IMG/VR virus record: IMGVR_UViG_3300013426_000002 | Span: 36,818 to 100,817 of that record | Origin: a virus | Length of the DNA stretch: 64,000 bases | Reading direction: 5' to 3' (one strand) | Shown: positions 4,742 to 42,041 of the stretch, piece after piece | How the letters are laid out: every line of letters starts with the position of its first letter | How positions within the stretch are numbered: the stretch's first letter is position 1 | Notes under the pieces: generated by a model | What the model saw: the letters and a program-made list of their open reading frames with translations, nothing else | What the model was told of the DNA's origin: nothing | The model's database searches: none | Translations under genes and position numbers: made by a program

Positions 4742-4818
4742 ATTGGCACTTATTGTATTTATTTCCAATATTAGTGCTGTGTTAATCTGTGAAGGAATTG
4801 AAGCTATAGTAGAAGCAT

Positions 4819-7710: not shown

Positions 7711-10700
7711 CTAAAAGATTGAAATCAAGTTATCATAATATTCTAACTTAGATCTTGGATCTCTTGCTTCATATATACTTCTTAGAGGAGTTGACTTAAT
7801 TAAGGATCGTTGGAATCGGTTTAAACCACGATATGGTCCTCTATTTATTTCTTGAAATGGATCTTGCAACGCTACAGTAGTTAAGTCTCCCCAATACTGT
7901 AACGTAGACCAAGCTGCTGTAGGACTATTAAGCATATTAAATACTTCAATAGGTAACACATTACCACGAGTTTCCAAAGAGGCTCTTAAAGTAAGATATG
8001 CTGCTTCTTGTTTCCACCAATTATCCCTGTCATCATCTGCCATAGCACGTATTATGGAAGAAATCAACCAGAAACCCAAAGTAGAAAATAAAAATTCATA
8101 TGTGACTCTCTTTAGGCAACCCTTTTCGTAATCATCTAATTCATCATAATGATCTTTATACAATTCTTTTAATTGATCAATCTTGCTTTTGTCAAAATAG
8201 TGTCTTTTTACATATTCATAAGCCGCAGGAATTTGCGCTTCATTCCACAATCCTGTAGAATAGTTGAATTGTCTCTTAGTTAAGAATTTTGTTTGCAGAT
8301 TAACCAAAATAAAATTACGGTATATTAATAATAACTGACCAATCAAATTGGAATGTAATTTTGATTTATCCAAATCTGATAACTGTGTGTCAATTCTAGT
8401 AGCAATTTGTTTAGTAGTGTTTTTTATTCTATTAGAAAGGTTTTCATCAACCACATTAGCATACTCTGGTTTTACTACTAATTGATTGTTTTTAACTTCA
8501 AAAGCATCAAAAAATGTGATATTTAATGCATTCCAAGCAGCTTTACCTTTTTTCTTATCTTTAAATCGTCTTAGAAATTGATTTTTATTTAAAAATTTAC
8601 CAGTTTCAGGATCATATTTATTGAAATATGCAACAGATAGTGCTAGTTTACCCTTAGTGATTATATCACCTATTTCGTGACCAAAATACCAATAATGTTG
8701 ATTTAGAGCTCGCAGTAAACGAGATTGGTTTAATTTACTAAATGTTTGTTCGTTGTCTCTAACTACACCCAAGTATTCAAGATAACACAATACCTTGTTT
8801 TTATTATTGGCTTTACCTATGTTTTTAATCGCATCTGCGTATGCTGGTAGTAAAGTCTTCGTTGCTTTGGCAAGTTCTTCATTTCCAAAGTAAATGCCAG
8901 AAATTGCTTCCAACCTGTTTTGAATTTTATTAGTAATTAAACCTGTCAAGATAACGTTTAAGTTCTGTGATATACCTTGAATTCTGGTATATGCTGCTAA
9001 GTTACTAACCAATTTATCTATGCTTACTCTTGCATGCTTACCTTTTGGTAACGGTATATTAACTTCTTTAGCATCTTTTTCCATACCGTAGACAAAACGA
9101 TTCATCAAATCCTTCATTTTGTCATAAGTTTTACTTTCTACTCCAGATATTCTGCCACCCTTTCTATCTTTAAAATCCATTCTACCAACAAAGTCCAAAG
9201 CTAACTCTAATTCAGGAGCAACTTCACTCATCTTTTCGTAGTTTACAGCCATTTTATAATAATGAATAATAGAACCTACTATATCGTTAGTTATGGCATC
9301 AGGATTGTCTAACATTTTGATATACCTTGTGGGTATTAATTTCACCAAAGAACCATCAGATCTTTTAGCATTTTCTAACATATATCTGTCATCATCATCT
9401 TTTACTGTATAAAGATCATGTGCAGCATACGCTATACCACTTAAGAAGTTATCTTTACTACGTATTTGAGTCCACGCACCACCTTCAATTTGAGGTAATT
9501 TATATTTATTAGCATATCTCAAAAAACCTATCTTAGAATTGGATAAGTCCATTACATCTGTTAAAGCATCGTATAATGCTTTTAATTTAGGATCACTAAC
9601 AATTTTGTTATAAGCAGCAGTGTTATCGAAGTACTTGATATTTGGTATTATTGTCTCACCACGATCTTCATATTTAGTAAATCTAGGATCATAAAATGGG
9701 GATTCTCTATCAATTTCTGCCCACGATTTATTTGGTATTCTTTCTACGTATTTTGATTTAAATTCATCCTTTGGAACTAGCTTACGCCAAAAAGAAGCAG
9801 GTACGATGTCACCCCGAGAAGTATATCTTGCATTTACAGAGAACCACGCGTTAAATGCAGCTTCACCCTGTTTCTCCATATGTTCGTATTCTTCGTAGAA
9901 TTTAGGGTTAATATTCCATTTAGCTATTTCCATTACTCTAGATTTTTTTTGTTTATCTCTATTTGCAATAGCTTCATCGGATATCATTACATCATAAGTG
10001 TTTATCATAGATTTAACGTTTTCAGGCATAGCGTCTACGTTAAATGTACCATCTTCTCTTGCATATAATTTTAAAAGATTTTTTCTAGCATTCTCATACA
10101 ATACTTGATTGTCAGATTTAATTGGATTTGAAGATAACATTTTAACGTCTTCCCAAAAATCTTCTTTTATTCTTTCAACAGAATTTCTTTGTTCCCATTT
10201 TTCAAACAGCTCTGGAGAAAGATTCTTTTTAGCAGCTTCTCTGGCTTTGTTGTATTTCTCCATATTTGGTTTATAATTCAACTTAGCTCTAAGTTTTTTA
10301 TTATATTGCTGCATTTCCTTGGCTATCTCCAAATCTAAACCTGCTTTTGTAGTGCCATCTGCATAAAAAGGATTTGCCAAATTACGTCTACCATTTTCTA
10401 ATTCTTGCAATTTGCCATAATCTTCATCGGATAATAATTCTCTATGTGGGTTACCATCTTTGTCCCTAGTTTTGTTAAGAAGTAGATTGATTTCCATATT
10501 AATTGTATCTCTTCTTGTTCTAGCTTCTTCACTAAGACTGTTGGTCAATTCGTAATATTCTGGTACAAATCTACGGATACTGTATTTAGAATGCCATTTG
10601 TTATTCTCGGTATTCCAAATTTTTAATTGCTCTTTATTTAATAGAGCAGGTACTTCTGATAAGTCTTTATCTCCAAATCCTAATTTATCCGCTAATTCTC

Positions 10701-13545
10701 TTTGAAATTTAAAAAGCTTTTGATAATGTTCACCGTAATTTAAATCTCTGGTCATAAATCCTGTTTTGTGACCATCTTTTGTTTTCTCATGGAAATAAGC
10801 CAGTTTAGATTTATCTACCTGATCTAACAATGATAATAACTCTTTACCTTTGATTCTTTCTTCATCTGCTACAGCATTCTTAACAGCGATTATTTTGTTC
10901 ATCATAATTCTAACTAATTCACTATTAGAATACTGTGTACTACCAACCCATTGATCCCACAAGTTAATATCTAAATCGCCTTCTTCCAGAATGTTTTTCA
11001 ATTGATCTACAGTATATGAACCAGCTTTAGTAGCTTCTTTAATAAAGTTATCTTTAGCAATTATATCAACTACATTATTGAAATTTCTAACAAGTTCTGC
11101 ATAATTGCCCATGATTCTTTTTAATGCTACTTTTGTATCATTAATCAATTGTTCATTATTGAAATAATCAAAAGTAGTATCATCATCTAGCATATTCTGC
11201 AAATTAGTAGCAATGTTGTTATAGAATCCAATATAACCTTTTTTAATCAGATCCAATTCAGCATTAGAGATTTCATGATCATTACCGTATTTAGCAGCTT
11301 CTTTTACTTTGGATAATATTCTTAAAGTTTCATATAATGCAGAATTGATATCTTGATCCATGTAATCTATGAATTCTAAAGTAGCTTTATCATTTTCTAA
11401 TTGATTTAATCTAAATTCTAAAGCTCTCAGTTCATCTAGTTTATTCGGATCTGTATATTTAGAATATTGGATGTCCTTCATTCTACGATGAATAGAAGAC
11501 ATTAATTTGTCATACGTATCATTCACAGCTTTTGGAGTTTCAACAACTTTTTGGTTGTGTATTTCTTTGCCAAAGAAATAAGAATTATCCAACGTACGAC
11601 CAGATAAAAATGCTTTTGTGATTTCGTTTAAAGTGTCTTGTTTTTCATTAAATAATCCTTTTATCCAATTAAAAAATCTATTATACCATTTTAATGCTTT
11701 AACAGAATTCTCACCTATTGCTTGTACTAAAGCTTCTTCGCTACCAAATTGTTTTATACCTCTTTGTACAATAGGCGCATTTCTAAACCAAGCAATGTAA
11801 TGATGAGCATATTCGTGAGGTAAGGTGTCTTGATTTTCTAATGCAGCATTTAATAATACTCTACCAGCCATATATCCTTCTACTTGGGCTTGTCCCCTAA
11901 GATTAGGGTTTGTTAATGCATCTATTTCAATGTTTGGATATATCTCTCGCAGTAATAAAGCTAATTCTTTATTTCTACCAGTAGCGTTTTGAGTAGCAGC
12001 TTCTTGATTATAAATATTATTATCCTGAGTAGAGAATGTACCTCGATTATCTATTGATTTAACTTGGCTTGATCTTCTAACTACTATTTCTCTAGCTTGT
12101 TCATTAGCTTCATAATTATGTTTTACTATAATACCATCTCTAAATACCCAATCATCGCGTCTGGTTTGTGGTATTGTATCTTCTTCTCTGAGGTTTAAGT
12201 ATGTAGCATATAAAGAATTACCTTCAGAAGCATACCTTTGTGCTAATTCTTGATTAGGAGTAAAATAAAAGCCAAAATCAAATTGCCCTCTTCTCTGATA
12301 GTTTTCATCAAAAGTGTCGAAAGTGGCAGAACTTCCATGATACACTACTAAAGGCTCTCCATTTTCATCTACTACTTTGGATACACTAGTTTTAGCTTTA
12401 TTTAAACTTTTCCAATTTTTAAAATCTTCAACATCTTGTTTTGTACCTAACAAATGAACATTTTCTTTCGGATTAAATACCACAATAACATCTGATTCAA
12501 ATTCATTATTTGCTTCATTAGATATAATTGCATCATTTTTATTTTGCTTGGCTTTAGTAAATAATCCTCGTTGTTCTTCATAATAAGTATTCTGATTTTT
12601 CTCTACAATTGGATTTTGTACATTGAGGACTGCTGGATACATCCCTTTTTTTACTTGTCTAGATTTCCAAGCATTTTGAAATTCAGATTTCTTTCTATTT
12701 ACCCAATCATTAAAGGTCTCTTTACCATATCTTATATCAAAGACTTCTTCAAAAAACTCTTTATCTGTTTTATCTTGATATCCGTATCTAGCTTTTCTTT
12801 CTGATAAATACTTTCCGTTAGAACCACCTTTGTCTCTATTAAATATACCTCTTTTATTTGGAGAATATTGCCTAATATTTGGACCTATTATCTCATTTTT
12901 CCAGTCATTAGACTCCATTCTACCATTACCAAGAGCCTCTTTTAATTCCCACCAGAGTTTGACCCAGTTATTATACCCTTCAGTATCAGGAATGTTTCTG
13001 TTTACACCAGAAATATATTGCAATGATGCCCAAGGCTGTTTGTTAAAATACATTTCTGCACCAGTTTCTGGAGCGCCAGATCCTTTACCTTTTTTGGAAT
13101 TAGCAACACCTTGAGATAGATCTGAATCTGTACCATGCCAATATATGGAGTCAATTAAAGAATTTGGATATATAGAATTTATATATTGTGTATATTCTTC
13201 TTTACTACCTACTTTAGATAACTCTGGGTTTATATCATACAAATAATCAACTGCGTCTTTGCTATTAATATCTGTTGATGTGTTACCAACCCAATCTCCA
13301 AACCAATTTCTAAAGCTTTCAGAGTAAGTTCTAGCTTTAGCTTGAATAGCAGCTACTCTATTACCATTATAATGCTCTAAAAGGTCTGAAAATAGCTTAG
13401 ATGGCTCCCCATTGGGAGCCTTATCTAAACCATAGCCATTGTTTTCTGAAAGAACATAATATGCAGCATTCTCACTACCTAATATTTCTGTATACTCTTT
13501 AAGTAAAGCTGCAACTTCTGGATTTTTAATATTTAAACACTGCAT
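7711..13545 (-). CDS. Giant (1944 aa) multidomain virion or ejected 'polyvalent'-type protein
   Basis: Uninterrupted 5.8-kb ORF. Contains WHGT and VVYHGSSATF...FGFYF (H-Y-E ADP-ribosyltransferase-like HG[ST] motifs, near 13125-13140 and 12303-12350). Contains an HExxH motif (LPHEYAHHY, near 11803-11817). The remainder is long and helical. Confidence 0.55.
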   Translation of the reverse strand: MQCLNIKNPEVAALLKEYTEILGSENAAYYVLSENNGYGLDKAPNGEPSKLFSDLLEHYNGNRVAAIQAKARTYSESFRNWFGDWVGNTSTDINSKDAVDYLYDINPELSKVGSKEEYTQYINSIYPNSLIDSIYWHGTDSDLSQGVANSKKGKGSGAPETGAEMYFNKQPWASLQYISGVNRNIPDTEGYNNWVKLWWELKEALGNGRMESNDWKNEIIGPNIRQYSPNKRGIFNRDKGGSNGKYLSERKARYGYQDKTDKEFFEEVFDIRYGKETFNDWVNRKKSEFQNAWKSRQVKKGMYPAVLNVQNPIVEKNQNTYYEEQRGLFTKAKQNKNDAIISNEANNEFESDVIVVFNPKENVHLLGTKQDVEDFKNWKSLNKAKTSVSKVVDENGEPLVVYHGSSATFDTFDENYQRRGQFDFGFYFTPNQELAQRYASEGNSLYATYLNLREEDTIPQTRRDDWVFRDGIIVKHNYEANEQAREIVVRRSSQVKSIDNRGTFSTQDNNIYNQEAATQNATGRNKELALLLREIYPNIEIDALTNPNLRGQAQVEGYMAGRVLLNAALENQDTLPHEYAHHYIAWFRNAPIVQRGIKQFGSEEALVQAIGENSVKALKWYNRFFNWIKGLFNEKQDTLNEITKAFLSGRTLDNSYFFGKEIHNQKVVETPKAVNDTYDKLMSSIHRRMKDIQYSKYTDPNKLDELRALEFRLNQLENDKATLEFIDYMDQDINSALYETLRILSKVKEAAKYGNDHEISNAELDLIKKGYIGFYNNIATNLQNMLDDDTTFDYFNNEQLINDTKVALKRIMGNYAELVRNFNNVVDIIAKDNFIKEATKAGSYTVDQLKNILEEGDLDINLWDQWVGSTQYSNSELVRIMMNKIIAVKNAVADEERIKGKELLSLLDQVDKSKLAYFHEKTKDGHKTGFMTRDLNYGEHYQKLFKFQRELADKLGFGDKDLSEVPALLNKEQLKIWNTENNKWHSKYSIRRFVPEYYELTNSLSEEARTRRDTINMEINLLLNKTRDKDGNPHRELLSDEDYGKLQELENGRRNLANPFYADGTTKAGLDLEIAKEMQQYNKKLRAKLNYKPNMEKYNKAREAAKKNLSPELFEKWEQRNSVERIKEDFWEDVKMLSSNPIKSDNQVLYENARKNLLKLYAREDGTFNVDAMPENVKSMINTYDVMISDEAIANRDKQKKSRVMEIAKWNINPKFYEEYEHMEKQGEAAFNAWFSVNARYTSRGDIVPASFWRKLVPKDEFKSKYVERIPNKSWAEIDRESPFYDPRFTKYEDRGETIIPNIKYFDNTAAYNKIVSDPKLKALYDALTDVMDLSNSKIGFLRYANKYKLPQIEGGAWTQIRSKDNFLSGIAYAAHDLYTVKDDDDRYMLENAKRSDGSLVKLIPTRYIKMLDNPDAITNDIVGSIIHYYKMAVNYEKMSEVAPELELALDFVGRMDFKDRKGGRISGVESKTYDKMKDLMNRFVYGMEKDAKEVNIPLPKGKHARVSIDKLVSNLAAYTRIQGISQNLNVILTGLITNKIQNRLEAISGIYFGNEELAKATKTLLPAYADAIKNIGKANNKNKVLCYLEYLGVVRDNEQTFSKLNQSRLLRALNQHYWYFGHEIGDIITKGKLALSVAYFNKYDPETGKFLNKNQFLRRFKDKKKGKAAWNALNITFFDAFEVKNNQLVVKPEYANVVDENLSNRIKNTTKQIATRIDTQLSDLDKSKLHSNLIGQLLLIYRNFILVNLQTKFLTKRQFNYSTGLWNEAQIPAAYEYVKRHYFDKSKIDQLKELYKDHYDELDDYEKGCLKRVTYEFLFSTLGFWLISSIIRAMADDDRDNWWKQEAAYLTLRASLETRGNVLPIEVFNMLNSPTAAWSTLQYWGDLTTVALQDPFQEINRGPYRGLNRFQRSLIKSTPLRSIYEARDPRSKLEYYDNLISIF

Positions 13546-13547
13546 AA

Positions 13548-16500
13548 TTATTCACATTCTTTTTTACGTTGTTTACCCATTTTGTCTAATTCTTCAGTAG
13601 CAGAATCATTAGCTGCTTGTTTCAAATCAGCTTCCGTAGCTGATACAAATTCTTCATCTATATCATAGTTTTCCACTACTTGCTGCTTTGCTTTTTCTAG
13701 AGTTTGAACCATTACATAATTCTTTGCTCTAGATACTGCTACGTACTTCAATTCTTGTCTTACTTCTTGACCATTTTTATCATTAAACCCAAAAGTATTT
13801 ATACTACTGTCGTTAATTAAAACTTTACTATAAGTACCACCTTGAGATTTATGAATTGTGTGAGCATATCCGTAATCAAACGATTTTCTAAGCTTTAATC
13901 TACCGTTAGCGTCTTTAACATCTCGCATAGTGTGAATCCTATTTTGTATATTATTGATTTTTTCAATAACAGCTTTAGCTGCAGTCGGATTTCCCTCAGC
14001 TAACAATTGCTTACGCATACTCCACAAGGTCTGTATATATTCTTGAACTTTTATGATATTTTCATCTGTTTCAAAATTAGATACTACATCAATAGTAAAC
14101 GAAGAAGCAGAAGTATCTATTGCGTCTTTGAGAGTAACTTTATATCCTTCCATACTTATACTTTCTTTTCTGTCAGGATATGTTAAATCAATTTGAATAG
14201 TAGTAGGTTTAACACTTTGCACTACGTAGTCTCCACTATTCATTAATTTATACTTCTTTCTTAGAGAATCGTATTCTCTATTAGAATAACCCATTACAAG
14301 TTCTCCTTCATACAGTTGCGCTGGTCTCCTACCATACAGGATTTGTCTTATCGCAGAGTTATAAGCTTCTACAGAAGAGTTTGTCGCAGCCAATACTCTA
14401 AAATATAGAGGGTCTTGTGAATCTTTCATTTCTTTTAATGAAGTTCTAACAAATTCTCTAATTCTATTTTTATCCGCTGTGTATTCAACACCCTGTCCGT
14501 TAGAAGCAATATCAGTTTTATAACTAAAATCCTCACCGTTTCTCACTCTAGTAGATTCTTTCAATATAGGATTATCCCCAGTTCTTTCTACTTTGGTTAA
14601 TTGTAATTGTGCACCATTGTTTCTAAATACCTTGGATATATTATTTGCTTTTACTGGTCTTAATTGACCTTTATCTCCCATAAATATGATCTGAGCTCCT
14701 TTCGCTGCAATTTGCTCAAGTAAGAAATCATATAAACTGTCTTGAATCATTGAGACTTCGTCAACGATAACTATTGAATTAGATTCTATTTTAACATCGC
14801 CAACCTGTTCAAATTTTAACTTGTGCAAATCAAACACATCTTCAGTAATGTTAAAATCCGGGCGCAATCCTAATAAACTTTGAAGCGTAACAACTTTTGC
14901 ATTCGGTGTCTTTTGTCTAGTTACAGCATTTGCTCTATGGGTAGGAGCTGAGAAAATAATATCTGCATTTATTCTACGCTTCAAATATTCATTAAATATA
15001 CCCATAATAGTAGTTTTACCTGTACCAGCATAACCAGATAAAGTAATAGATGTATCATCTCCATTAACAAATGCTTCTAACTCTTTCAAAGCAGATTTCT
15101 GTTGATCATTCAATTCAAAATCTAATTTAACTTCTAAACCATCATCAAAAGTATATACATATTTATCTTGTATTTGCTTAGTTTCTTCAACAGCTTGTTT
15201 TACTTCTTCTACTTTGGGTAAAGCCTCTGTTAAACCTACTTGATTAGCATATTGTTGAAGTTCAGTGAATTGAGTAGGAGTTTCTGAAGATTGTTCATCA
15301 TGAGACCAAGTTTCGGCAAGATTGGTTTCTTTTGCTTCAGTCGGTACTTGCCTTTTTGAACTATATTCAAAATTATCAAGATACTGCTGATATGCTTCTT
15401 GTGATGCAGCTTCACCGTTCTTTGACTGATAAGTTTTAGACCATTCTTTATAAGCTAAAGGTTCAGTATTCTGCAAATCAACATTTTCAGTAGCTACAGT
15501 CTGTAAAGCATTTTCATTGAATTCTCCAGCTTGATTAAACATCTTAGTCTGTAAACTAGCTTTGACAGGAGTTAAATCTTGTACATAAGTTATAGCTCTA
15601 GACGGGGTAAAATCTATACCAGTAGGTACTACATTGTTATAGCCTACAGAAGATTTCTTAAAACCAAACTCAACAAGTACATTACCCTTATAACTTAAAC
15701 CTTTCTTATTAATCAATTGATATACTGGTACTTTATTTTCATCTACACCAATATATTTATATAAGAAAGTAGTTCTAGGATCGTTGTTTTTGTCTAATTT
15801 AACTTTCTTATAAAGATAATGTATAGGATCACCTGCTTCATTATAACCTACAATACCTCTAAATTTACTAGATTCATCATAGATTATAGAAGGTATTTCA
15901 ACTTGTTCTCCTTTCTTATTAGTTACAAATAATCCACTACCATCATGAGCAACAGGTCTATATACTGCTCTACCTTCTTCTTCAATAGTTTCATAGCTAG
16001 AATCCAATTTATAGTATTCAATAGCAGGAACTACATGATCATTCCACCACAGATTTCTGATTACTTCTTGTAAATCTATCTGAGATATAACATTTTCTGG
16101 ATGTTTTTCTAATTCTCTAATATAGTCAAAATATCCTATTTCTTCTCTTATAGAGTTAGGAACGTATCTAAATATATTATTCTTACCAAAAGCATCTCCA
16201 GACGTATAGAAAGAATATATTGCAAGATCTTTAGCAAATTCTCTTACTTCTTTATAATCACTTTCATAAAGTTCTTCCCAAGCACGAATGATCTCATTTT
16301 CCAAATTATTATCACCACTTTTATTAGGTTTGTATGCAATGAAATCAGGTCCTTGTAATTCTGCAGCATCTTCTTTTGGTCTACTAAAGATATTGTTAAT
16401 CAACACATTCGAAAAACTACCATCACTCCCAAGTAATGAAGGATATTTGCCTTGTAATATATCAGATTTAAGTCTATCCAATCTTCTAGAAATACTGTTG

Positions 16501-17936
16501 TTACCAAATAGCATACCACGGAATCCCATTTGATTATCTTTAACATACTGATTAAAGAATTTAGTCTTGTAAGATACTTCCATTGCTCTAGTGATGTTGT
16601 TAATATATGTATCATCACTTACAGCATAACCTTTGGTATAGTATTCAATTAATGATCGTAAGGTTTCAAATTCCGGAGTAAGTCTAATCATGACATTCTG
16701 GAATGCGTTTCTAGGAAATACTAAACCATCAATCATTTTCTTACCTAAGAACGTATTAGTAAACACTTTCAAAGGATTGTTAAAAACAGATTGTTCAGTC
16801 ATATACTGTTTCCATTTATCCAAGAATGCGCTTTGTAAACCAAAGTTATTACCAAATCTTTTAGTATCAATCTGAGATAAGTTAGTTAATTCTGACAAAC
16901 TCTTAGAAAATGGAGTTAATTCTTCATAAGCCTTAAGAATTAATAATTGATTATAATACCAATCAAATGTTTCGGTTTTCTGTAATTGTTTTCTAAGATG
17001 TGGTACAGTAAACATTTCTTTTCTTTGATTAGTACCTACACCTTTATCCTTAAGATAATTCAGAAGATTCTCTTTCTTACCACCGGATAATTCTTTTGCT
17101 TTTTTATAATAATCATTCCAAACCTTGGTAAATGCTAATCTTTCAGGATTTTTACCAGCAGGTATTTCAACGCCATAAAAACCAGAATATTTATCATATT
17201 CAGTTGCATAGTCTTTCAATATCTGTTGAGGTAAGAAATAAAATGTACTTTCACCTTTACCACTTCTAATTAAGAAGTTAGTCATGTTAAAAGTTAATTT
17301 ACGTACATTCAAACGAATAATATACGGATCTTTAGCTACGTCTACGTGAGCATTAATCAAAGCTGATAACCAGTCTAATACATTGATTTTATTAGCATCT
17401 TCACTCTGAATATGATGCAAATCACGTATACCGTAATCGTTCAATACTTTATTTGGTTTGAAATTCAACTTAACTAATTGAGTTAATACTTGATGAGCAT
17501 TAGCTAATGCAAACGGACCAATACCAAACTTACCACCATTCAACTCAGCTTTAGTTCTACTCTGGAATGCCGGAGTAGAGAAATACAATTGAGATTTACT
17601 AGTTCTCTTACCTTGACCCGTTAATTTATCAACATCCTTAAGAATTTTGTCTTTCAGATAATCTGTTACAGTATCAAGAGGCTGTCTAGCTTCTGCAAAG
17701 TTCATAGGATTGCTGATTACTGACAAATACATATCAAGAAGCATATTTTCGTTTGCTTCTCTACTATTTGCTTCAAAATCAGTTTTACCATTATATCTCT
17801 CATAAGCTTTTCTTACTACAGTTTCATCATCTAAACCAGTAGCTTTCAGTCTCCGAACATACTGATCTTTTGTTTCAAACTTGATTCTATTACCATTATT
17901 ATCGTAGTTATATCTTGCTATAAATAATTTATCAAT
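13548..17936 (-). CDS. Exon 2 of the giant intron-split gene (putative virion RNA polymerase C-terminal part plus SF1 RecD/Dda-like helicase module)
   Basis: The frame of the 1398-aa ORF stays open 5' of its first ATG up to 17969. Helicase motifs are LSGYAGTGKTT (Walker A, near 15010-15036), IVIVDEVSM, FMGDKGQLRPV, YAHTIHKSQGGTY and YVAVSRAK. The exon start at 17936 is inferred from the intron 3' end (see the intron feature). Confidence 0.7.
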   Translation of the reverse strand: MDKLFIARYNYDNNGNRIKFETKDQYVRRLKATGLDDETVVRKAYERYNGKTDFEANSREANENMLLDMYLSVISNPMNFAEARQPLDTVTDYLKDKILKDVDKLTGQGKRTSKSQLYFSTPAFQSRTKAELNGGKFGIGPFALANAHQVLTQLVKLNFKPNKVLNDYGIRDLHHIQSEDANKINVLDWLSALINAHVDVAKDPYIIRLNVRKLTFNMTNFLIRSGKGESTFYFLPQQILKDYATEYDKYSGFYGVEIPAGKNPERLAFTKVWNDYYKKAKELSGGKKENLLNYLKDKGVGTNQRKEMFTVPHLRKQLQKTETFDWYYNQLLILKAYEELTPFSKSLSELTNLSQIDTKRFGNNFGLQSAFLDKWKQYMTEQSVFNNPLKVFTNTFLGKKMIDGLVFPRNAFQNVMIRLTPEFETLRSLIEYYTKGYAVSDDTYINNITRAMEVSYKTKFFNQYVKDNQMGFRGMLFGNNSISRRLDRLKSDILQGKYPSLLGSDGSFSNVLINNIFSRPKEDAAELQGPDFIAYKPNKSGDNNLENEIIRAWEELYESDYKEVREFAKDLAIYSFYTSGDAFGKNNIFRYVPNSIREEIGYFDYIRELEKHPENVISQIDLQEVIRNLWWNDHVVPAIEYYKLDSSYETIEEEGRAVYRPVAHDGSGLFVTNKKGEQVEIPSIIYDESSKFRGIVGYNEAGDPIHYLYKKVKLDKNNDPRTTFLYKYIGVDENKVPVYQLINKKGLSYKGNVLVEFGFKKSSVGYNNVVPTGIDFTPSRAITYVQDLTPVKASLQTKMFNQAGEFNENALQTVATENVDLQNTEPLAYKEWSKTYQSKNGEAASQEAYQQYLDNFEYSSKRQVPTEAKETNLAETWSHDEQSSETPTQFTELQQYANQVGLTEALPKVEEVKQAVEETKQIQDKYVYTFDDGLEVKLDFELNDQQKSALKELEAFVNGDDTSITLSGYAGTGKTTIMGIFNEYLKRRINADIIFSAPTHRANAVTRQKTPNAKVVTLQSLLGLRPDFNITEDVFDLHKLKFEQVGDVKIESNSIVIVDEVSMIQDSLYDFLLEQIAAKGAQIIFMGDKGQLRPVKANNISKVFRNNGAQLQLTKVERTGDNPILKESTRVRNGEDFSYKTDIASNGQGVEYTADKNRIREFVRTSLKEMKDSQDPLYFRVLAATNSSVEAYNSAIRQILYGRRPAQLYEGELVMGYSNREYDSLRKKYKLMNSGDYVVQSVKPTTIQIDLTYPDRKESISMEGYKVTLKDAIDTSASSFTIDVVSNFETDENIIKVQEYIQTLWSMRKQLLAEGNPTAAKAVIEKINNIQNRIHTMRDVKDANGRLKLRKSFDYGYAHTIHKSQGGTYSKVLINDSSINTFGFNDKNGQEVRQELKYVAVSRAKNYVMVQTLEKAKQQVVENYDIDEEFVSATEADLKQAANDSATEELDKMGKQRKKECE

Positions 17937-18841
17937 CGCTACTACCTTATGATTTCCATAAGGGCTAGACTATATCTTCACTTTGATAGTGCTTCCCATT
18001 TCACCTTTCGGCTACACAGCGTGTGTGCGCTGACTCAAATCATATTGAATTTTATGAAGCATTGAAGGAATTTGTTCAACATATGGTTTTACGATGTCTA
18101 TAAACTTTATTCCTTCTTTTGTTCCACAGCATAAAGAATAACTGTTTTCTTTTTTACCTTCGTGAAACATGTAAAAATCAATATTCCAAACTTCTTTAAA
18201 GTAATCTATTATTGTTTGTAATTCCTCTTTTGGCATACAGGTTGCAATTTTTATATAGAAACCGTGAACTTTACCATTTGTTTTTCTATAATTTATATGT
18301 CCATCATCCATATACCAGATTGCAATTCCTTTAGCATCTAGTCTGTTTAATAGTTTTCTATTTCCCAATTTTTTATTAGGTTTATAAAAAACTCTTCGCA
18401 AGACTTTTATAAAAGGTATAATATTTAATTGAGTGTAATAAACTTTTTTACCTGTATTATAACCTTTAACACTGATGTATTCTTTTAAACCATTGTTTCG
18501 TAAACCAGCGTCTTTAAGTTGTTTTATTTTCCACTCAAGATAATCACGTTGTTCTTCACAATGACTTAATTTAAATACATTGTTATTGCTTATTGTTCCA
18601 TCACCAAGTAAAAGAGCTATCAATAAATTTCTAGATTCTTTAGTTATTTTTGTTTTCATACTTGCTATCCATTTAGGAAGCTTCCATTGAGTATTAGTCG
18701 TTGAACCTTCCGATTAGTTATATAGATAACGATCGGCTTGGCTGCTGGTTGCCCAATCCCTTGGATTTTTACTACACTTAGTACCTTAGGCTCTAAGGGG
18801 TTTCCAGCAATTAAAGAAGTTTTGTTTCGACTATTGTGTTA
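17937..18841 (-). mobile_element. Group I self-splicing intron carrying a LAGLIDADG homing endonuclease ORF in the P8 loop
   Basis: Read on the minus strand. P1 pairs exon UUCGAU with intron GUCGAA, with a U.G pair at the splice site. P element AAUUGCUGGAAA is at 18801-18812. Q element AACCAGCAGCC is at 18740-18750. R element GUUCAACGACUAAUA is at 18692-18706. S element AAGAUAUAGUC is at 17968-17978. P8 pairs GCUUCCUA with UGGGAAGC and brackets the ORF. The P9 hairpin is CCUUAUG-GAAAU-CAUAAGG. The terminal G is at 17937. Confidence 0.85.
18012..18659 (-). CDS. LAGLIDADG homing endonuclease (double-motif, intron-encoded)
   Basis: Two LAGLIDADG motifs: LIALLLGDGTIS and GIAIWYMDDGHI. About 215 aa. 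Lies inside the group I intron. Confidence 0.9.
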   Translation of the reverse strand: MKTKITKESRNLLIALLLGDGTISNNNVFKLSHCEEQRDYLEWKIKQLKDAGLRNNGLKEYISVKGYNTGKKVYYTQLNIIPFIKVLRRVFYKPNKKLGNRKLLNRLDAKGIAIWYMDDGHINYRKTNGKVHGFYIKIATCMPKEELQTIIDYFKEVWNIDFYMFHEGKKENSYSLCCGTKEGIKFIDIVKPYVEQIPSMLHKIQYDLSQRTHAV

Positions 18842-21800
18842 ATCGAAGTCTGACCCAGTAAGGGCTGTAAATTCATCAGGAAGAGTAATAGTATCACCAA
18901 TCTGTTCAGGATAAACGTCTACCACTTTTAAAGCTGCTGTAGAAGCCTGACCTTGCGCAGGGATACGATAACCCATTGCTATTGCCTTTGTATCTGGACC
19001 AATTATATCGTGGTTTATTAACCATTCTTTAGCTTGACTGAAAGTCATTTTATCATAACCAGGTATAATGTGCTTCAACAAGTTAATTGATATAACACAA
19101 TCCATACTACCATCGTCATTGACAAAATTAAGCTTTCTTACATTGTTAACATCAGACGTTACAGCCAGTCTGTTATACAAGATGGAAGACATCTGAATAA
19201 ACATACCACCTGGTAAATTAGTATCTACTATGGCTTTGTTCAACATTGATATAAGACCGCTTTCAATCCAAGAGTTATCAGACAAACCTGAAATAGGAGC
19301 ATTAGTATTGCCATCTTCTACAGTAAGACCATTCAAAACATTATCATTCATGTTTGAATTTTCTGCTTTTCTCTTAAGAATATTAGCAAATTTAACAATG
19401 CTGGCTTGTGGATTATTAGCATCAATACCAAAGTCTTTTTCTATACTCTTTCTACCAAATTCGGTAATGGCATTATGAGCTCCGTTGAAGTTGTCAATAA
19501 CCTCTTGTCCAGAATAAGGTACTCCATCAGGAGTAGTATATGTCCAAGCTGTTCTAATGTTACCCATAGCTGCTTTCTGAGCCTGAGATACAAACATTTG
19601 TCTATCTGCATGGTGTGGATCAGTTACTAGCTGACGTCTAAAATTAACTAAAGACTGTTTGTGAGTAGGCATATTCATCAAACCCTCGATATCTACCTTA
19701 GTATTTGATTTATCTGTGTATATCTTAGATTTAACTTCTTCAACTCTTTGGCCAACCTTAACTGCAGATTCAAATGCAAGCATGTGAATGTTTCTAGCTT
19801 GCATTACTTTCAACACTTCTCCCATGTCCCCTGTAGAGAATATTCTATGAACCGGGAACATTGCCATCTTGTCGAATACAGGTATATCTCTTTTTGCATT
19901 TATATCATAATGATCACCGAAGTACATTAATTTTAAAGGTTTTAATGTAACGGCTAGTGCTTCATTATAAGTATCTGCATCAGCTTCATAATCTGTTTCA
20001 GGGTTATTCAATATATCAAAAGCTTTAGCTACTTCAGGAGTCCAACCATCAATTCTTCTCACTAATTCTTTATAGAATTCAGGAGAAATAAGTACAGTAG
20101 CGTCCGTTTGGTTTACTTTGGTATAACCACCGAATTTACTATCAACTACAAGATTAGCAGCATCTTCAACATCTTGAGGTAATGCTTCACCACTTTCATA
20201 AGCAGCAAGAGCTTCTTTTTGGGTCATGTTGTGCATTTCCTGCAATAATCTCACTGCCGCTGATTTCTTCGCAAATTCATTAATTTTACTAAGCTGTCTA
20301 CTAGGTATTACATTATCTGATAATGTACCCACATTAACTTCAGTCAAATTTGATAACTCATTACCTTCACCGTAGTCTATTCTAGGCGTAACACCGGTTG
20401 ATAATACTTCACGAAGACGTTTGATTTTGTCTACAGGATCTTTATAATATGCAGGATCTTTGACAAATAATTTTTCAAATTCTATTACTGAAGATACAGT
20501 ATTAGCAAAATAATTTGCCATCAATTCTGTAGCAGCTAATTCCTTGCTGTATTTTGATACTTCTTGACGCTTCTTATAATGATTTTCCGCATCATCTAAT
20601 GCTTTTTGAGGAAGTGCTAAACTCTTTACACTAGCAAAATCTTTGCCATTCCAATCAATAATACCTATTTCCTTTGCATAATCTAATTCATCTTTAAAAG
20701 CATCTGTTAGATAGTTATTCATTAACAAAGCTTTATCAGAGTTACTCATCTTTGCCCAAGAAGCCTTTATTTGGTTTACTACGGATAATGCTAAATCACT
20801 ACCACCAATGTCTTCAGCGAGTTTAAGAGCTTCATTGAAGTTAGAAAAGTCATCTACAAATTCAATGCCACCTAAGGTTGGTTGTTCTTTAAGCTTAAAG
20901 AATCCATTGAAATATCTAAATCTATAACCATTTCTATTGCCTGTATCGTAGTTCTTTACTTTTTGTGCTTTAGTTAGGTTGCCTTCATTCTTATAGTTGA
21001 ATTCAATAGTATCTAATTCAGTTTCAAAGTAATTAATAAATCTAGTTAATACTTTGGCATTAAATTTAACTTGATTGTTAGTGGTATCTAAAGGCTGATT
21101 GAAATTGTTGATAGCTGTGCCATATAAAGTATTATATGTTTGAGAGTCACCCATAGTAGGTAAAATAATTCTACCTTTTTGAGTAAGTGTCATTTTAGCA
21201 ATATAATCTTCTAATGGCGAGATTTCTGTGTATTTACGTCCTTTATCACCACTACCTTGTTCTTTAAAATAAACCAAAGTTTCAACACCTATTTTTCCAG
21301 ATACTGTAGGATTATTATAAAGATTTGTAAGCAAATAAGAACCCTTAAAATAATTAGGGTTAGCATTATTACCGGTGTTATATAACACCTTAGTAAAGGC
21401 TTCTACTGTTGCTGGGTCATTATCAAGATTCTGAACCATATCTGTTAAATAATTATGATCAGATATGGGATATAACAGTTTACCGTCCGTAGATAATACT
21501 GATAATTCATCAGAATTGGGGTGTGTCATACCATAAGTTTCGGACAATCTACCTAAGAATTTAGAATCATCGTAATATCGACTAATGTGTTTGTTATACG
21601 TGCCTGGTACATTACCGGATGGTTCAATTTTTAATACATCCTTTAATTTATTACCAAATAAAAACGATAAACCAGCATTACTACCGTCATTAAACAAATT
21701 TGTTAACTGTTCTGCAGGATTTGGATCATAATATTCTTTAATTAAAAATGAATTTAATGTATCCATATCTATAGATACTCCCGCTCTATTTAAGAGTGAT

Positions 21801-24800
21801 AATATATTATCCTTTATTTTGATAACGTTAGCTTCTACATATTCTTTGTATGTTTGACCGTTCTTAAGTTTGGCGTTCGGTTTGTTTTTATAGCTTTTGA
21901 GTAAATTATTAATTTTGTGGTAATCATCCAGCAATAACTCTATATTAGTTTTATTATCGGTGGTTTTTAATGAATAACTATCACCATCAAAGTTTATCAA
22001 CTCAGTCATCCTAAGTAAACCATAATTCCACCCTTCTATAATGTTTTTGGAAATCTTATTTGCGTTCTCATCTTTTACATACAAATTAGTTTGGTCATTA
22101 TCATTGTTTTCAATTTTTTCAGACAAGATACCAATAAGTTTGTGTTTGGCTTTTCTAAAAGTATTCCTGAATTGAGTTTGTAAATTTTCTCTAGCTATTA
22201 CTTGGGTTTCTGTTTCCCCAGGAACTGGTTTTGAAATCTTGTATAATTCTCTATATAAAGTATCAAAAAGAGGTAATGATTTTGCACATTTTGCACATTT
22301 ATTCATCATACCTTCAAAGGTGTTCTCTGAGTGTAATTCGTTGATTATTGTATTCCATGAAGAATCGAAATCAACCATGAGCGGTAATCCGGTAACAGGG
22401 CTTAATACAGTTCTGGTTTTCTGTACCTTTACAATTGTGCCATCTTCTTTCTTAACTTCTGCCTCATAGAATTCTCTTTTAGGCATGGAAGCAATGAAGA
22501 TTTTAATAGATGCCAAAGCATTATCTTTTACTGAGGTTTCTAATGATTCACGAATGTATGTAGCCATCTGATCGCCTACAGCAGAACCTTCGGCTTTTTC
22601 GTCTATTTCTTGGTCAATATTTTCCTGTTTGTCTACAGCTCTGATTTGATATTCATTTAGTTTCCTAATAATTGCTGGAAGAAATACATTATCAAAAGTT
22701 TCATAGATTTCTTTTCTAGCTTCTCCTTGTTCTTTGGTAATCTTTCCATTCTCTACAAGCTTGTCTGTTAAAGAAGGTTCTAGAGCATTTTTTAACAAAC
22801 TATAATTCAAGCCTGTTAAATCATCTCGCATCTTTACGTTATTCAAAGTAAATAAAGAAGCAACCAATGAATTAACACTTTCTTTGAATTGTGTATTTGT
22901 AATGTTTTTAAAATCGTGACCACCTAATTTAAATGGGGCTCCTGCACCTTTGTATTCATTTAAAAACTCCTGTACAGCTGCAGAATTTTGTTTAGATCTA
23001 TTGTAGTATCCTGTATTAATTCTATCAAAAATATTATCAATAGTAGCGTCTGTTCTCCAAACCCATTTACTAATGAAGTTTTTAATTGCTTTCCAAGCTC
23101 TTTTTATGATATTTAAATCAGGTTCAACTTTGTTTAACATGTATTGTCTAAAATCTTCCGCAAGAGACTCTTCAACATCTTTATCTGTACCAATTAAACC
23201 AGTTCTATTTCTATAAGCTTCATATATTTTATGACGTTCTTTAGGTGAAATAGTTAATAATGATATTCTATGATATGCTTCATGATATAAAGTACCTGTT
23301 TCTGCACCTTTCCAGAGTAAAGTAGAATCTTGTTTAACAAGTCCCATTGCATACACATTGTTACCTAATGATATAGCATCGTCTACTATAGTGAGAGAAT
23401 CACTTTGGAAACCCAATTTCTTTTTAAACCATTCTATTTCTTCATTAGAAACTTCTTTGGTTACTTTACCAGTAAGACGTCGCATGGGAATATCAATGTC
23501 GTCATCCTCTATAGCAAATGGATCAATTGTCCCGTTTTTAGTGATTTCGTTGATTCTTTTTGCTTCTTCTGATAATTCTGTTGGTTCTACTGCAGCAACA
23601 CTGGTAGGTACATTTGCTATATTTTCAACTTTGTTTTGAGTTTTTTCAACAGCTTTAGGACTCTCTACTTTTTTAGATATAGTTTGTATATCATCAGCAT
23701 AAGCAAAAGAGTCTTTAAACAATTGATCTTGTAAGTCACTTTTGATTAAATTACTGTCAACAAACAAACCCATTGTATATAATGGGTGATGTTCATTGTT
23801 ACCTAAAAAATCATCTTTATAAAAGGTTACTCCTGGTATAATGTCTTCTTGCAAATACGAACTACTTTTTGCAAATGCTTCTTTTAAAGAGGGTAAAGCA
23901 TTACCTACAGGACTAAAGAAATTTTCTCTATTGGCTCTCCAGTGAAATCCCATCAAATCGTTGACAAGGTCCACTTTATCTTGAGAAGACATATTCCCGA
24001 TATGGTAAGATTTTTCTCCTACTACAAGATCCCCTTTATCATTTACATAAAGTTGCTTCTTTTTCATCCAATTAAAAGTAGGAATATCAGACGTAACTTT
24101 AGTATTATCTCCAAAGCGAACCATGAAGTTTATTAATTCGCCAGCAACAATTTCTGTGTCTTTATAATAAGATTCAGGAGAGGCTCCGTAATTCAAAAGC
24201 AAATCTGCAAGAAACTCGGCTTGTTTTCTGTCAAATCTTTGTAAATTAACTTGTACTGGTATCTCTGAATTATTGAGTGTGCTAGATTTTGGAGGATAAA
24301 TGAACAACTGACCACTACCCCCAGTACCATTTAATATTTCACCACCCGCACCAAGAATTAAGCTATCAGAAATAATACCATTACTGATACCAAAGGTTAC
24401 ATTTTCTGGAGTAATATCATATTTATTACTAGGAAATTTGAATCCTTTTACTTCTTGCACAGGTCTAAATACCGCTCGCTGACCATTTCTATTTATATTG
24501 TATTTACCACGAGTCCTACTGATTGTGCTCGGTACAATAACCTCATTGTTGGTCTTGTTTTCAATAGCAGTAATGATTGCATTTCTAAAAGATTTTAAAT
24601 CATTTATAGAAACTTCATTAGCCTGTTCAATTGTATTTAATTCTTCTGCTGTAGCTCTATCACGAATACCTGCAATATCCGCATCAAATTTAGTTCTAGC
24701 TCCTTTAGGGGTCTTAAGTGCTAAAGCGTACTTACCGGTAGGATGTTCTACACTCAATATAATAGAAGTATTATCATATGTAGTTTTATCACCCTTTTTA

Positions 24801-27800
24801 TATGGTTTACTACCTTTTTCAGTGTAAGATTCATTAATAATGAACTCACAGAAACTATCTGCAAAGAACTTGGGATCTTTGATTCTTTCTGCTAATTCTT
24901 TACCAGATTTATAACCAGGTAACATAGGAGTTGTGGAATCTGGTGAAAAGAACAATGTGTGTGATACTGTATCTTTAGCCAATTCTTCTATTTCTAAAGA
25001 ATCTTCATATTCTCTAGACTCAGAATCCATATCTGTTTTGCTATCATGTTTCTGTTCGGTAGCTAATTTCTTTTTAGCTTGTTCAACTTTTTGCTCTACT
25101 GTAATATCTGGAGTAATAGTATCTGCTGTTTGTGAAACTTTTTTGTCTTCATCTGTTGCAGCAGCTAAAGGATCTGCATCTTCATTAGCAACCTTTTTTA
25201 AATCTTGAGGTGTAGCAAAAGCAAATTCTTCATCCTCTTCTTCCACATCTTCTACTACAGGTTCTTTCTGTTTGCTCTCTTCTGCAATTTTGTTACGTTC
25301 TGCTTCAAATTCTGCAGCTAGGTCTTCTAAACTTTTTGTAGGGAATTCCTCATCACGTTTAGTAGCTGGTTCTGTTTTTTCTTCAGGTGTTGTTTCAGGA
25401 GCAGGAAGCGGTGATGGTGCAGGTATTTCTGTGTTTACTTTGGATTTTGCTCTAGAATCCATTATAGGAGATTGCGGTTTTTCAGCTTCTTTTTCCTGTA
25501 CTTCTGGAGCAATTTTGCTTGTGGCTACAGTTTCATTATTATCTGTGCCATTATTAGCTACTTCTTTTTCTGTAGAAGCAATATCCTGTTCAACAATCTG
25601 CCTAGCGTTATCTTCCGCAATTCTACTAGACTCGTCTGAATTATTTAGATAATTTTCAATTCTCTTTTTGATATTGTTTAGTACCTTTTTCTTTGATTTA
25701 TCTGTAGCCTTGTCAAAACTAGTAAGTTTACCGTTTTCCAAAACATTACCGAAAATCTCATTCATTTTGTGTTCTGATACTAAAGCATCATGTTGAGCTA
25801 ACATCAAATTTGCATAGCTATCCACACCAGTTTGCATGATGTGAGGAGCAGCTACAAAATCTGTACTGAACTTTGTATTAGCAGCTACTTGAGCCAACTG
25901 GCTATCAATGTTTTTAATGGCATTTGGTATAGTCTTTAAAATAGATTTGGCTACAGAATTATCACTATCAGTAATACCAAATTTAGTTTTGCCAGCTTCT
26001 ACTGGAGCTTCAATTGCATTCTTCAACTCCTGTAAAGCTTCTTTCTGTACATTTAACTTAGTTAAAGTAATGGCTGCCAATTTTTCTTCAGGAGTGTAAT
26101 TACTTAATAAAGCATCTTCAGAAAGATCTGCATACAATTTATTGTCAGCATCTTGAGCTGTTTTTGCATTATTAACAGCTTCTTGTAAATCTAATTGTGC
26201 TACATGTTGCAAACCAATTAAGGTGTTATATTCCGTAGTTCCCGCAGAATAACCTAATTGCTTACCAATATTCTTTGTAGTTTTTGATTTAGCTAAATTA
26301 AATACATTGTTTGCCGTTTGAATTTCAGCATTTATGTCATCCTCAGTAATACCGTCAGGCATGTGATATTTAAAGTTTTCTAATACTTCAATCACACTGT
26401 CTTTATAATTGAGCATAGAGTTTGATGCTTTGTCCGCATATGTGACAGCTTTGTTCATAGCGTCTTTTTTAGCTATGTTGTCTGCAACCATATCCCTAAC
26501 AAACGTATTGGCAATAAAATCTTTACGCATGTCAATACCTGCGTGATACGCTGTGGTAGGACCACCCATATACATACCCAATGCAAATCCACCTTTCACG
26601 TCATTCCAGAATTGAGGATCATTTGCCAATTCTGATTCAGTGTCTATTCCTGATAGAATTTTTGCGGTACGATAATTAGCATCAGCTAACCCAAGTAACG
26701 ATGAAAAAATGCCAGAAGAATCTTTATCATACTGATTGTGAATGTAATCATAATCAAATATGTCCTGATTACCTTCTTCAAAAGCTTCCCCAGTAGCAGC
26801 AAAACCCATACGAGCAAGAGCTTTAGCCCCTTTACTTAACATATTCATTTTGGGACTATTGTAAGCCAATCTGGCATTAAATCCTGTGTATGCGTCAACT
26901 AGTTTATTATATTTCTTAGTAGCGGTATCCGACAATTTGGCTAATGGTTTTAATGCTTTACTTATGGGTTTGGTTATAATCTTACCCATAGCTTTACCCA
27001 ATGGAGCAAACATCAAAGCAGATTGTGCAACATCCATTGCGGACAAAGCCATGTTATTATTATAAACATTTTCTAGACCATTATTTGCTGAAGCTTTTAA
27101 AGAATTCAAAACTTCATCGGATATTTTGATTTCACCAGATAAAGTTCTGTCTATAATTTCATCGTCTGAAATTTTTGTAACATCTATATTAGGATTCTGT
27201 TGTTTTAATTGATCCCTCCCCATTTGAACATAATCTTGAATAGATACACCTTTATCTTCAAGATCTTTTTCAATTTTAGAACGGTATGCTCCGTACACTT
27301 GGGCTAATGATTCTCTGTGTCTACTATAAATATTTCCTGCTAAACTTATTGCTGTAGCTGCAATTGCTGTACCCCAACCAACAAGATTAGCTGCTGCTCC
27401 AACACCAGGAATTGCATTTAAAAGTCCAGTAGTTGCATAATGTCTGCCTAACCACAATGCACCTGTAGCTAAAGCATCAGCTACATAAGATTCAATGGTT
27501 GACATAGAAGAACCTGTTAATCCAGGACCTGCATACAATAAATAATCAGAATCGTAAAAAGGTTTATCCTGAGCCTTTTGTTCTTTTATTTGAAACCTGG
27601 CAGAAGGTTTATATTTTTCAGATCTAGAAGTAATAGAATCATAATAATCTTTAATATTATCATTTACTTCGGATTGTTCGTTTACCCACCAATCTCTTAC
27701 ACCATTCAAGTATTCAATTCTTTTATCTACATCATTACCTTCTGAATCATTGTATTTTTCTAATATGGCATTATATTTTTCAGAATTGGTTCTTAAATTG

Positions 27801-28252
27801 TTTTTAAGAATTTCATACTGCTGTAAAGTGTTTTGATATTCTTGGGAACTTTTATCCATAGTAGGTAAAACATTCTCAAGATTTAAGAGCATTTTCTTAT
27901 CATTCAAATATTGTAATTCATAATCAATATCTTCAATGACAGGATTAATATCTTTTACTAATTTTGCTCTTTCAGACATCAAATTAATTTGATCTCTATT
28001 GTTAGCAAAAGTAGTCCATGCGTCTTGCAAATAGCTTTTATCTTTTAGTGTTTCTTCTGGATTGTCTTTATTCAGCAAATACGCATATTCATAATCGTCT
28101 AATGGAGTTGTTTCTAAATTCCTATCATAACCTGTTTTAATGTTGGTAATAGGAGAATACTGAGAATTAACCATGTTTACAGCATTACTTAATAATGCTG
28201 CTTTACTTGGTGTATTTTCAGTAGAATATTGACCTAATATAGATTTTTCCAT
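18842..28252 (-). CDS. Exon 1 of the giant intron-split gene (3137 codons; putative virion RNA polymerase N-terminal part with membrane-active and zincin-like regions)
   Basis: 9.4-kb ORF. The N-terminal region has Gly/Ala-rich hydrophobic segments (...LNAIPGVGAAANLVGWGTAIAATAISLAG...). An E/P/K-rich low-complexity linker spans about 25200-25650. An HExxH motif (LYHEAYHRI) lies near 23268-23285. The ORF ends ...TALTGSDFD, and its TAA stop is formed by the first intron nucleotides. Confidence 0.75.
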
Positions 28253-41107: not shown

Positions 41108-41109
41108 AC

Positions 41110-41903: not shown

Positions 41904-42041
41904 ATCTATTATTCTTTTTATAAAGTATTACAAAAGGATAACCTTTTAAATTACTTTCTATTAATAACCTTAATAATCTTGTACTTTTATTTTATTAGTT
42001 ATTTTTTGGCAAGAGCCAAGGTCATGTCGAAACCCGATAAA

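Follow-up and report, generated by a model that had tools for sequence, protein, structure and literature searches.

A group I intron carrying a LAGLIDADG endonuclease gene within the predicted catalytic loop of a gp66-like RNA polymerase gene of a crAss-like phage

The DFDxD virion polymerase and the LAGLIDADG group I introns of crAss-like phages are already published. Each Asp of the DFDID motif of gp66, the virion-packaged DNA-dependent RNA polymerase from phi14:2, a crAss-like phage (PDB 6VR4, chain A), was required for RNA synthesis, and the crAss-like polymerases always have I or V at motif position four (bioRxiv 10.1101/2020.03.07.982082). According to the available text of Yutin et al. 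2021 (PMC7886860), group I introns and inteins are numerous in the delta- and zeta-group crAss-like phages; a LAGLIDADG "intron-encoded endonuclease maturase" is named within the block of transcription genes by the legend to its Fig. 3, and breaks inside the DxDxD of zeta-group polymerases are put down to unknown mechanisms. We examined a 64,000-nt stretch of viral DNA (IMG/VR record IMGVR_UViG_3300013426_000002, positions 36,818 to 100,817; hereafter, the window, with coordinates counted from its first letter) in which a group I intron interrupts a gene for a giant gp66-like RNA polymerase, between the second Asp codon and the Ile codon of the predicted Mg-binding motif DFDID.

The classical group I introns of phages belong to subgroup IA (T4 td, nrdB and sunY, and the DNA polymerase introns of SPO1 and Bastille); they splice themselves out, carry endonuclease genes and sit in conserved stretches of genes for enzymes, and homing introns at active-site codons are textbook knowledge. 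The DNA polymerase introns of Bacillus phages occupy neighboring alternative insertion sites in one gene. Pseudomonas phage PhiPA3 (Birkholz et al. 2024, via PMC12908238) also has an endonuclease-bearing group I intron, in a gene for an RNA polymerase subunit, and the endonuclease attacks a co-infecting relative's polymerase gene, which has no intron (PMC12908238); the available text of PMC12908238 names neither the endonuclease family nor the intron position relative to the catalytic motif for PhiPA3.

We consider it highly probable that the window derives from a crAss-like gut phage, of Suoliviridae type, with cr50_1 (Cohcovirus) as the closest named relative, in which a mobile group I intron interrupts a gp66-like polymerase-helicase gene, splices and homes.

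The intron and its splice junction

All features of the locus (exons, intron and endonuclease gene) are on the minus strand, as follows, with the basis for each in brackets.

18842..28252, minus: exon 1 (3137 codons) of the gene for the giant RNA polymerase (open reading frame [ORF] list, translation)
18842..22588, minus: gp66-like polymerase module in exon 1 (phmmer versus PDB; AlphaFold2 and Foldseek)
18842-18850, minus: GAC TTC GAT, D-F-D, predicted first two catalytic Asp (last three codons of exon 1)
17937..18841, minus: group I intron, 905 nt (Rfam RF00028 half-hits; missing in cr50_1)
18826..18836, minus: internal guide sequence (direct reading; P1/P10 table of 18 introns)
18012..18659, minus: predicted LAGLIDADG homing endonuclease, 215 aa, double-motif (Pfam LAGLIDADG_2, PF03161)
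13548..17936, minus: exon 2, 1462 codons plus stop (translation; phmmer domain 2)
13707..15116, minus: Dda/RecD-like superfamily-1 helicase, C-terminal, fused to the polymerase (Pfam, PHROG, PDB)

The ORF 18839..28252 (3137 codons) ended in ACT GGG TCA GAC TTC GAT and was followed immediately by TAA; read directly in this ORF, exon 1 ends in phase 0 with GAC UUC GAU, as stated in the original prediction. Three guanosines (17942, 17939 and 17937) are found 3' of P9. Splicing after G17942 would lead to a stop after 0 codons and splicing after G17939 to a stop after 6; only G17937 opened a frame of 1462 codons, starting ATT GAT AAA TTA TTT. The ligated product would be 3137 + 1462 = 4599 aa, reading ...EFTALTGSDFDIDKLFIARYNYD..., the two halves of the predicted junction being GACTTCGAT-ATTGATAAA (also written ACTGGGTCAGACTTCGAT/ATTGATAAATTATTTATAGC), and the junction codons GAC UUC GAU AUU GAU would leave the catalytic loop whole.

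The intron boundaries were fixed to the nucleotide by colinearity with an intron-less allele. In cr50_1 (NC_055868), a phage of the Crassvirales (Suoliviridae, Cohcovirus), the homolog, 79.9% identical in protein, is an uninterrupted ORF of 4774 codons that continues unbroken across the insertion point (reading GACTTCGATATTGATAAG; DNA, GGTTCTGACTTCGATATTGATAAGTTATTT), and in a blastn search of the region both flanks matched cr50_1 and the intron did not. There is no repeated base at the boundaries, and the extra DNA is therefore exactly 17937..18841, 905 nt. At the level of sequence, the frame test and the intron-less allele together confirmed the junction at G17937, which had been proposed as the terminal intron G that recreates a DxDxD motif (DFD/ID). 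The giant fused protein, foreseen at about 4599 aa, is taken to be real because its cr50_1 ortholog (4774 aa) is encoded as a single ORF.

P1 can be drawn between exon UUCGAU plus intron UA and UAGUCGAA (intron nt 9-16; 18826-18833), in which the internal guide sequence (IGS) GUCGAA is the partner of exon UUCGAU, and the last exon U forms a terminal U.G wobble at the 5' splice site. The 4-bp P10 suggested earlier was also present, as CAAU (intron nt 6-9; 18833-18836) can pair with exon-2 AUUG; a P10 of 4 bp is weak evidence by itself, and its weight comes solely from the comparative data, where P10 co-varied in the relatives.

In a permissive scan of positions 17700-19000 the RF00028 model matched in two halves, a 5' match at 18598-18851 (45.8 bits, E = 3.6e-10) and a 3' match at 17945-18144 (35.9 bits, E = 3.4e-07); the 648-nt ORF splits the model, and for this reason the intron falls below the gathering score as a single match. 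A second intron was not found by a permissive E-value scan of the whole window. The parts of the ribozyme core are as follows.

18695..18819, minus: 5' half of the core (Rfam alignment, pair counts)
18814-18819, minus: P3 5' strand, in the 5' half
18804-18809 / 18743-18748, minus: P4, followed by the P5 region
18740-18742 / 18705-18707, minus: P6, then J6/7
18695-18699, minus: P7 5' strand, in the 5' half
17937..17997, minus: 3' half of the core (Rfam second half-hit; pair counts; frame test)
17992-17997, minus: P3 3' strand, in the 3' half
17979-17991, minus: P8 hairpin, then J8/7
17968-17972, minus: P7 3' strand, in the 3' half
17945-17963, minus: P9, in the 3' half
17937, minus: terminal guanosine G17937 (frame test)

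P2 was absent from the window intron. For pair counting, 15 polymerase-gene introns were aligned with their ORFs deleted and compared with a hand-drawn structure that included the P3/P7 pseudoknot. Core pairs were formed in 91% of 547 cells, compared with 28-44% when the partners were slid by 1-3 columns; the covariation score was 0.235, versus at most 0.131 for slid partners, and was reached by 0 of 500 shuffles. Compensatory changes were seen in 5 of the 6 pairs of P3 (98.9% paired) and in 3 of the 4 pairs of P8; P4, P6 and P7 were invariant and paired throughout, and every core helix was intact in the window sequence. A 19-nt core, GGAAGGTTCAACGACTAAT, comprising the P6 3' strand, J6/7 and P7, was found by an IMG/VR scan at 90 places representing 62 distinct introns; ORF-less introns with this core scored 64-104 bits with RF00028 versus the gathering score of 50. 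On these comparisons of sequence, the 905-nt insert is a group I intron with a covariation-supported core.

Two other arrangements were rejected. Going by the Rfam alignment, the loop of P8 would hold the endonuclease ORF; the 15-intron comparison puts the P3 3' strand after the ORF, which locates the ORF between the P7 5' strand and the P3 3' strand, with P8 being a short hairpin just before J8/7. An intein was dismissed on the grounds that TAA directly follows exon 1 and that the 905-nt insert is not divisible by three.

The predicted endonuclease matched PF03161 LAGLIDADG_2 over residues 12-185 (E = 5.4e-22, 79 bits versus a cutoff of 25), with both motifs, LLIALLLGDGTIS and IAIWYMDDGHI, in one chain. 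Its dN/dS of 0.08-0.10, determined against four relatives, indicates that the gene is under purifying selection. The cr50_1 sequence ...CTTACTGGTTCTGACTTCGATATTGATAAGTTATTTG... is a candidate natural target. In phage cr131_1 (NC_055902; contig L002) a homologous endonuclease ORF, 4346..5074, contains in-frame TAGs and is annotated as a single CDS (coding sequence); the TAG codons align with Q and D of the window endonuclease, a pattern that fits a reassigned TAG in cr131_1.

The interrupted gene and its neighborhood

An 800-aa query centered on the ligated junction was compared with the PDB by phmmer, and the only match was 6VR4_A (E = 5e-27), in an alignment that crossed the junction unbroken (GYRIPAQGQASTAALKVVDVYPEQIGDTITLPDEFTALTGSDFDIDKLFI vs GYRIPNQGQSSNDPLQIVGILPEAMGDTIVAYTEIPTKTGSDFDIDKMYV). 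DFDID fell on residues 1361-DFDID-1365 of gp66 (chain numbers are higher by 14, the chain having 14 extra N-terminal residues), in agreement with the idea that it is the DxDxD of the crAss-like virion polymerases. Exon 1 alone matched 6VR4_A with E = 5.7e-15, residues ~1889-3137 being aligned on chain residues 225-1377, a span of gp66 that takes in the connector (1095-1238) as well as sequence upstream of the connector; the polymerase module of exon 1 ends in a beta-prime-like barrel strand (...GYRIPAQGQAS...TGSDFD). Exon 2 starts with ATT GAT (I-D), which would supply the third catalytic Asp, and its first ~250 residues correspond to chain residues 1481-1680 of gp66, holding the bridge helix and trigger loop. 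When exon 2 alone (13551..17936, minus) was searched by phmmer against the PDB, 6VR4 was not among the matches at E <= 0.001; the exon-2 region within the ligated 800-aa query scored 47.7 bits (E = 6e-12) to 6VR4. The miss probably reflects filtering or bias with so long a query that includes the helicase.

The motif is strongly conserved. About 65 of 98 homologous protein clusters had contiguous GSDFD[IV]D[KH], and T-G-S-D-F-D-x-D was invariant in 33 aligned homologs, with I253 at least 90% conserved. Conserved, contiguous aspartates in intron-less homologs had been named as a check on the original prediction, which also held that homing introns favor conserved catalytic codons; this intron lies inside the invariant motif. 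An AlphaFold2 model of 504 ligated residues (predicted local distance difference test, pLDDT, 84.8; predicted template modeling score, pTM, 0.80) gave 6VR4_A as the first Foldseek match (E = 1.8e-18, TMq 0.71). Ranks 2-50, as listed, were all beta-prime/Rpb1/A190-type largest subunits (probability <=0.99, E ~2e-3 to 1e-2) of the multisubunit polymerases of bacteria, archaea, eukaryotes and phage AR9, as would be expected of the double-psi beta-barrel that had been forecast near the junction. Matches to the junction region were present in 138 crAss-like phage records. The alignments and the model support a host protein that is a gp66-like RNA polymerase, presumably of the two-barrel kind, with the intron in its catalytic loop.

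The remainder of the ligated protein is of two kinds. Its ~1890 N-terminal residues are without a recognisable family, and neither Pfam nor PHROGs gave a family in exon 1. The C-terminal ~500 residues matched Pfam AAA_30 (9.3e-28), AAA_19 and UvrD_C_2, PHROG 325 Dda-like helicase (7.9e-84) and, in the PDB, 3UPU Dda (2.4e-20); it is because of this Dda/RecD-like helicase fused at the C-terminus that the 4774-aa cr50_1 ortholog is labelled merely "DNA helicase". An HExxH motif (LYHEAYHRI; 23270..23284, minus; exon-1 residue 1657), upstream of the polymerase module, had no Pfam support; it could represent a metalloprotease bearing on the idea of a polyprotein. Nothing in the analysis supported the proteolytic processing implied by the "polyprotein" of the original prediction.

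Directly downstream of the polymerase gene is an ORF of 1944 aa (7711..13545, minus) with an ART-PolyVal domain (Pfam, 6e-14), the ADP-ribosyltransferase of "polyvalent" injected proteins. This domain hints at another giant protein with a role as cargo or in anti-defence.

We propose the following scheme, inferred from structure, comparison and family knowledge. The intron RNA would fold into the group I core; the guide sequence would pair with UUCGAU of exon 1 (P1) and with AUUG of exon 2 (P10), and the intron would excise itself at G17937, restoring GAC UUC GAU AUU GAU and the 4599-aa protein. The LAGLIDADG enzyme would cut intron-less alleles of the cr50_1 type in mixed infections, and repair would copy the intron in. 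The target would be hard to lose by mutation, since the encoded residues cannot change, and a deletion that removed the intron imprecisely would ruin the polymerase. Judging by its homology to gp66, the 4599-aa product may be packaged in the virion and may transcribe early genes.

Related introns within the same motif

At least 18 distinct introns of the same family were found within the DxDxD codons of polymerase genes, on diverse phage contigs, at three insertion sites within 9 nt (after D1, after D2 and after Ile; 3 and 6 nt apart). The slash marks the intron.

Site A, after the first Asp, GSD/FDID: L004 plus identical copies on several contigs; cr131_1; L018, L045, L068
Site A variant, QGSD/YDIDK: L022/L072
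Site B, after the second Asp, DFD/ID: the window; L023; L003, L080, L092, L074, L082
Site B variants: GSDLD/IDK in L009; GSDYD/IDK in L024/L035
Site B in GenBank: cr116_1 (Steigviridae), bajarodcaudo virus 1
Site C, after Ile, GSDMDI/DK: L051

The phage contig L023, 96-98% identical to the window, shares both the intron and its site, the 3' ends being 100% identical, and a G precedes the I/V-D-K codons in every site-B relative. The breaks were also visible in the protein clusters, one of which ended in ...GSDFD and two in ...GSD plus read-through, with seven starting MFDIDK; the M of these last starts is derived from the terminal AUG of the intron.

P1 and P10 could be drawn in all 18 introns, and the guide sequence co-varied with the exon: IGS GUUAAAG occurred with exon UUUGAU, GUUGAAG with UUCGAU, GUUCAAG with CUUGGAU, and GUCGUA with UUACGAU. 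P10 was 3-10 bp in the relatives and co-varied likewise, exon-2 AUAUUG occurring with CAAUAU and AUAUAG with CUAUAU (as sequence, exon-2 UUGAUAUUG with CAAUAUCAA, and UUGAUAUAG with CUAUAUCAA). The ligated sequences of L035 and L051, which are divergent contigs, had no match in the PDB by phmmer; profile comparison gave 94% (L035) and 90% (L051) probability to the barrel segment, aligned exactly on the motif. Searching the L051 protein against GenBank phages by tblastn returned two unannotated records only, and gave no zeta-group assignment of the divergent contigs.

The window intron (site B) was 90% identical to that of L004 (site A, 6 nt upstream) over the 853-nt interior, comprising the core and the endonuclease gene, and the two endonucleases were 90.7% identical; the intron ends (guide sequence and P9) were only 47% (5') and 68% (3') identical. 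The window interior was 81-82% identical to those of the same-site introns L003 and L080. High interior identity across sites, with diverged ends and lower identity within a site, indicates that interior and ends have different histories: by this comparison, either the element changed site, or interiors were exchanged between site-specific ends by recombination. The L004 exons are nearly identical to cr50_1, but for a cluster of three synonymous changes where the intron is inserted (TCT GAC TTC to TCG GAT TTT), the first two of which are those needed by the L004 P1.

Tentatively, and with clearly less than even confidence, we suggest that one intron-endonuclease lineage moves between the three sites, by guide retargeting or by interior swap in co-infection; that it serves as a widespread weapon in, or marker of, crAss-like phage competition; and that it explains at least part of the "disrupted DxDxD" genes of Yutin et al. 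2021. The periodic NNN-GAU-NNN-GAU-NNN-GAU of the DxDxD codons would permit such site switching.

In the GenBank crAss-like genomes cr131_1, cr116_1, bajarodcaudo virus 1 and cr50_1 this gene was deposited as 2-3 "hypothetical proteins" or as "DNA helicase". In cr116_1 (L096), bajarodcaudo virus 1 (L097) and cr131_1 the intron is unannotated and the insert is given as "endonuclease" or "hypothetical protein"; once the intron is recognised, the pieces become one polymerase with its active site intact. Close relatives exist that are intron-less, that have the intron after D2, or that have it after D1, and these mixed alleles, together with the purifying selection on the endonuclease, suggest ongoing homing where these phages, the most abundant of the human gut, occur in mixed infections. 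The endonuclease presumably reads a long site in invariant sequence and could aid engineering or counter-selection of crAss-like phages; the three sites with site-tuned guides make a compact natural system for studies of group I intron retargeting.

Other occurrences of the family were noted. About 40 of the 62 distinct introns with the 19-nt core (L006-L095, IMG/VR) lie outside the polymerase motif, many of them ORF-less, and L041, L050 and L058 each have two introns within a few kb. The 117-kb unannotated "Bacteriophage sp." record MT835470.1 has a match to the divergent L051-type polymerase in two pieces ~1.1 kb apart (40859..43190) and also matches part of the window endonuclease gene; it probably holds another catalytic-site intron.

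Alternative explanations and comparison with known systems

Several points weigh against the interpretation of a splicing, homing intron in a polymerase active site. Rfam at its gathering score gave no match in the whole window (best 45.8 vs 50 bits). P10 has no more than 4 bp. Self-splicing in vivo and the precise product of ligation are predicted from DNA; the activity and target of the endonuclease are predictions; and the catalytic role of DFDID and the packaging of the protein in virions are assigned by homology at ~20-30% identity to gp66. Four other explanations were considered, and jointly they would account for only a small part of the probability.

The gene could be truly split, with the two ORFs translated apart to form a two-piece polymerase and the intervening endonuclease gene free-standing. 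The GenBank records of related phages, which annotate the pieces as separate hypothetical proteins, would fit such an arrangement, and some crAss-like phages encode the polymerase in more than one gene. The break, however, falls inside a five-residue Mg-binding loop, and exon 2 is without a start codon at the junction; its first in-frame ATG is 64 codons on (ORF 13548..17744), where the third Asp would be lost. As the endonuclease gene is moreover flanked by a covariation-supported group I core with guides that match both exons, we regard a split gene as very improbable.

To the same slight degree we allow for a decayed intron that no longer splices, leaving a polymerase pseudogene in a defective or misassembled genome. 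The Rfam score under the gathering threshold is what would be expected of decay, but the reading frames of the two exons run unbroken through 3137 and 1462 codons, no helix of the core is damaged in the window, purifying selection acts on the endonuclease ORF, which is intact, and in the near-identical contig L023 this intron occupies the same site and has an unchanged 3' end.

An alternative 3' splice site, giving a different protein junction, has next to no probability: the two additional guanosines after P9 (17942 and 17939) would offer one, but they lead to stops within 0 and 6 codons, the intron-less allele fits the G17937 junction only, and the G before the I/V-D-K codons is kept in all site-B relatives. 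Equally negligible is a DFDID that arose by chance in a protein that is no polymerase, for example a "polyvalent" injected anti-defence protein like its neighbor, as might be argued from the silence of Pfam and PHROGs on exon 1, the adjoining ORF with the ART-PolyVal domain, and the annotation of the cr50_1 gene as DNA helicase; against this, the 6VR4 sequence match spans ~1700 residues, the motif is invariant, and the structural matches listed are 6VR4 and beta-prime-type subunits only.

The interpretation of a mobile intron in a gp66-like polymerase gene can thus be set beside the known systems. The polymerase is homologous to phi14:2 gp66 (PDB 6VR4; bioRxiv 10.1101/2020.03.07.982082) over ~1700 residues, and shares with it an identical GSDFDIDK loop (I at position 4), the R-I-P-x-Q-G-Q-x-S strand and the aligned bridge-helix/trigger-loop region. 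In contrast to gp66, a stand-alone protein of 2180 aa from an uninterrupted gene, the window polymerase is a module inside a 4599-aa protein, with ~1890 extra N-terminal residues, a C-terminal Dda-like helicase and a motif that is split by the intron.

The introns of Yutin et al. 2021 (PMC7886860) agree with this one in phage order, intron class and endonuclease family; the available text of that paper is without the DxDxD insertion point, the splice junction or alternative sites. In PhiPA3, too, a mobile endonuclease-bearing group I intron interrupts an RNA polymerase gene of a phage, but its polymerase is multisubunit and the phage is a nucleus-forming jumbo phage; going by the available text on it, PhiPA3 is the only tested precedent for intron competition at a virion polymerase gene, and such competition among the crAss-like phages is a prediction. 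The classical phage introns differ in host gene and endonuclease lineage, whereas here there are three sites within 9 nt and near-identical interiors across sites. As far as we searched, three alternative sites so closely spaced, together with mosaic introns, are undescribed in the literature; we regard them as an extension of what is known of these elements and not as a new principle.

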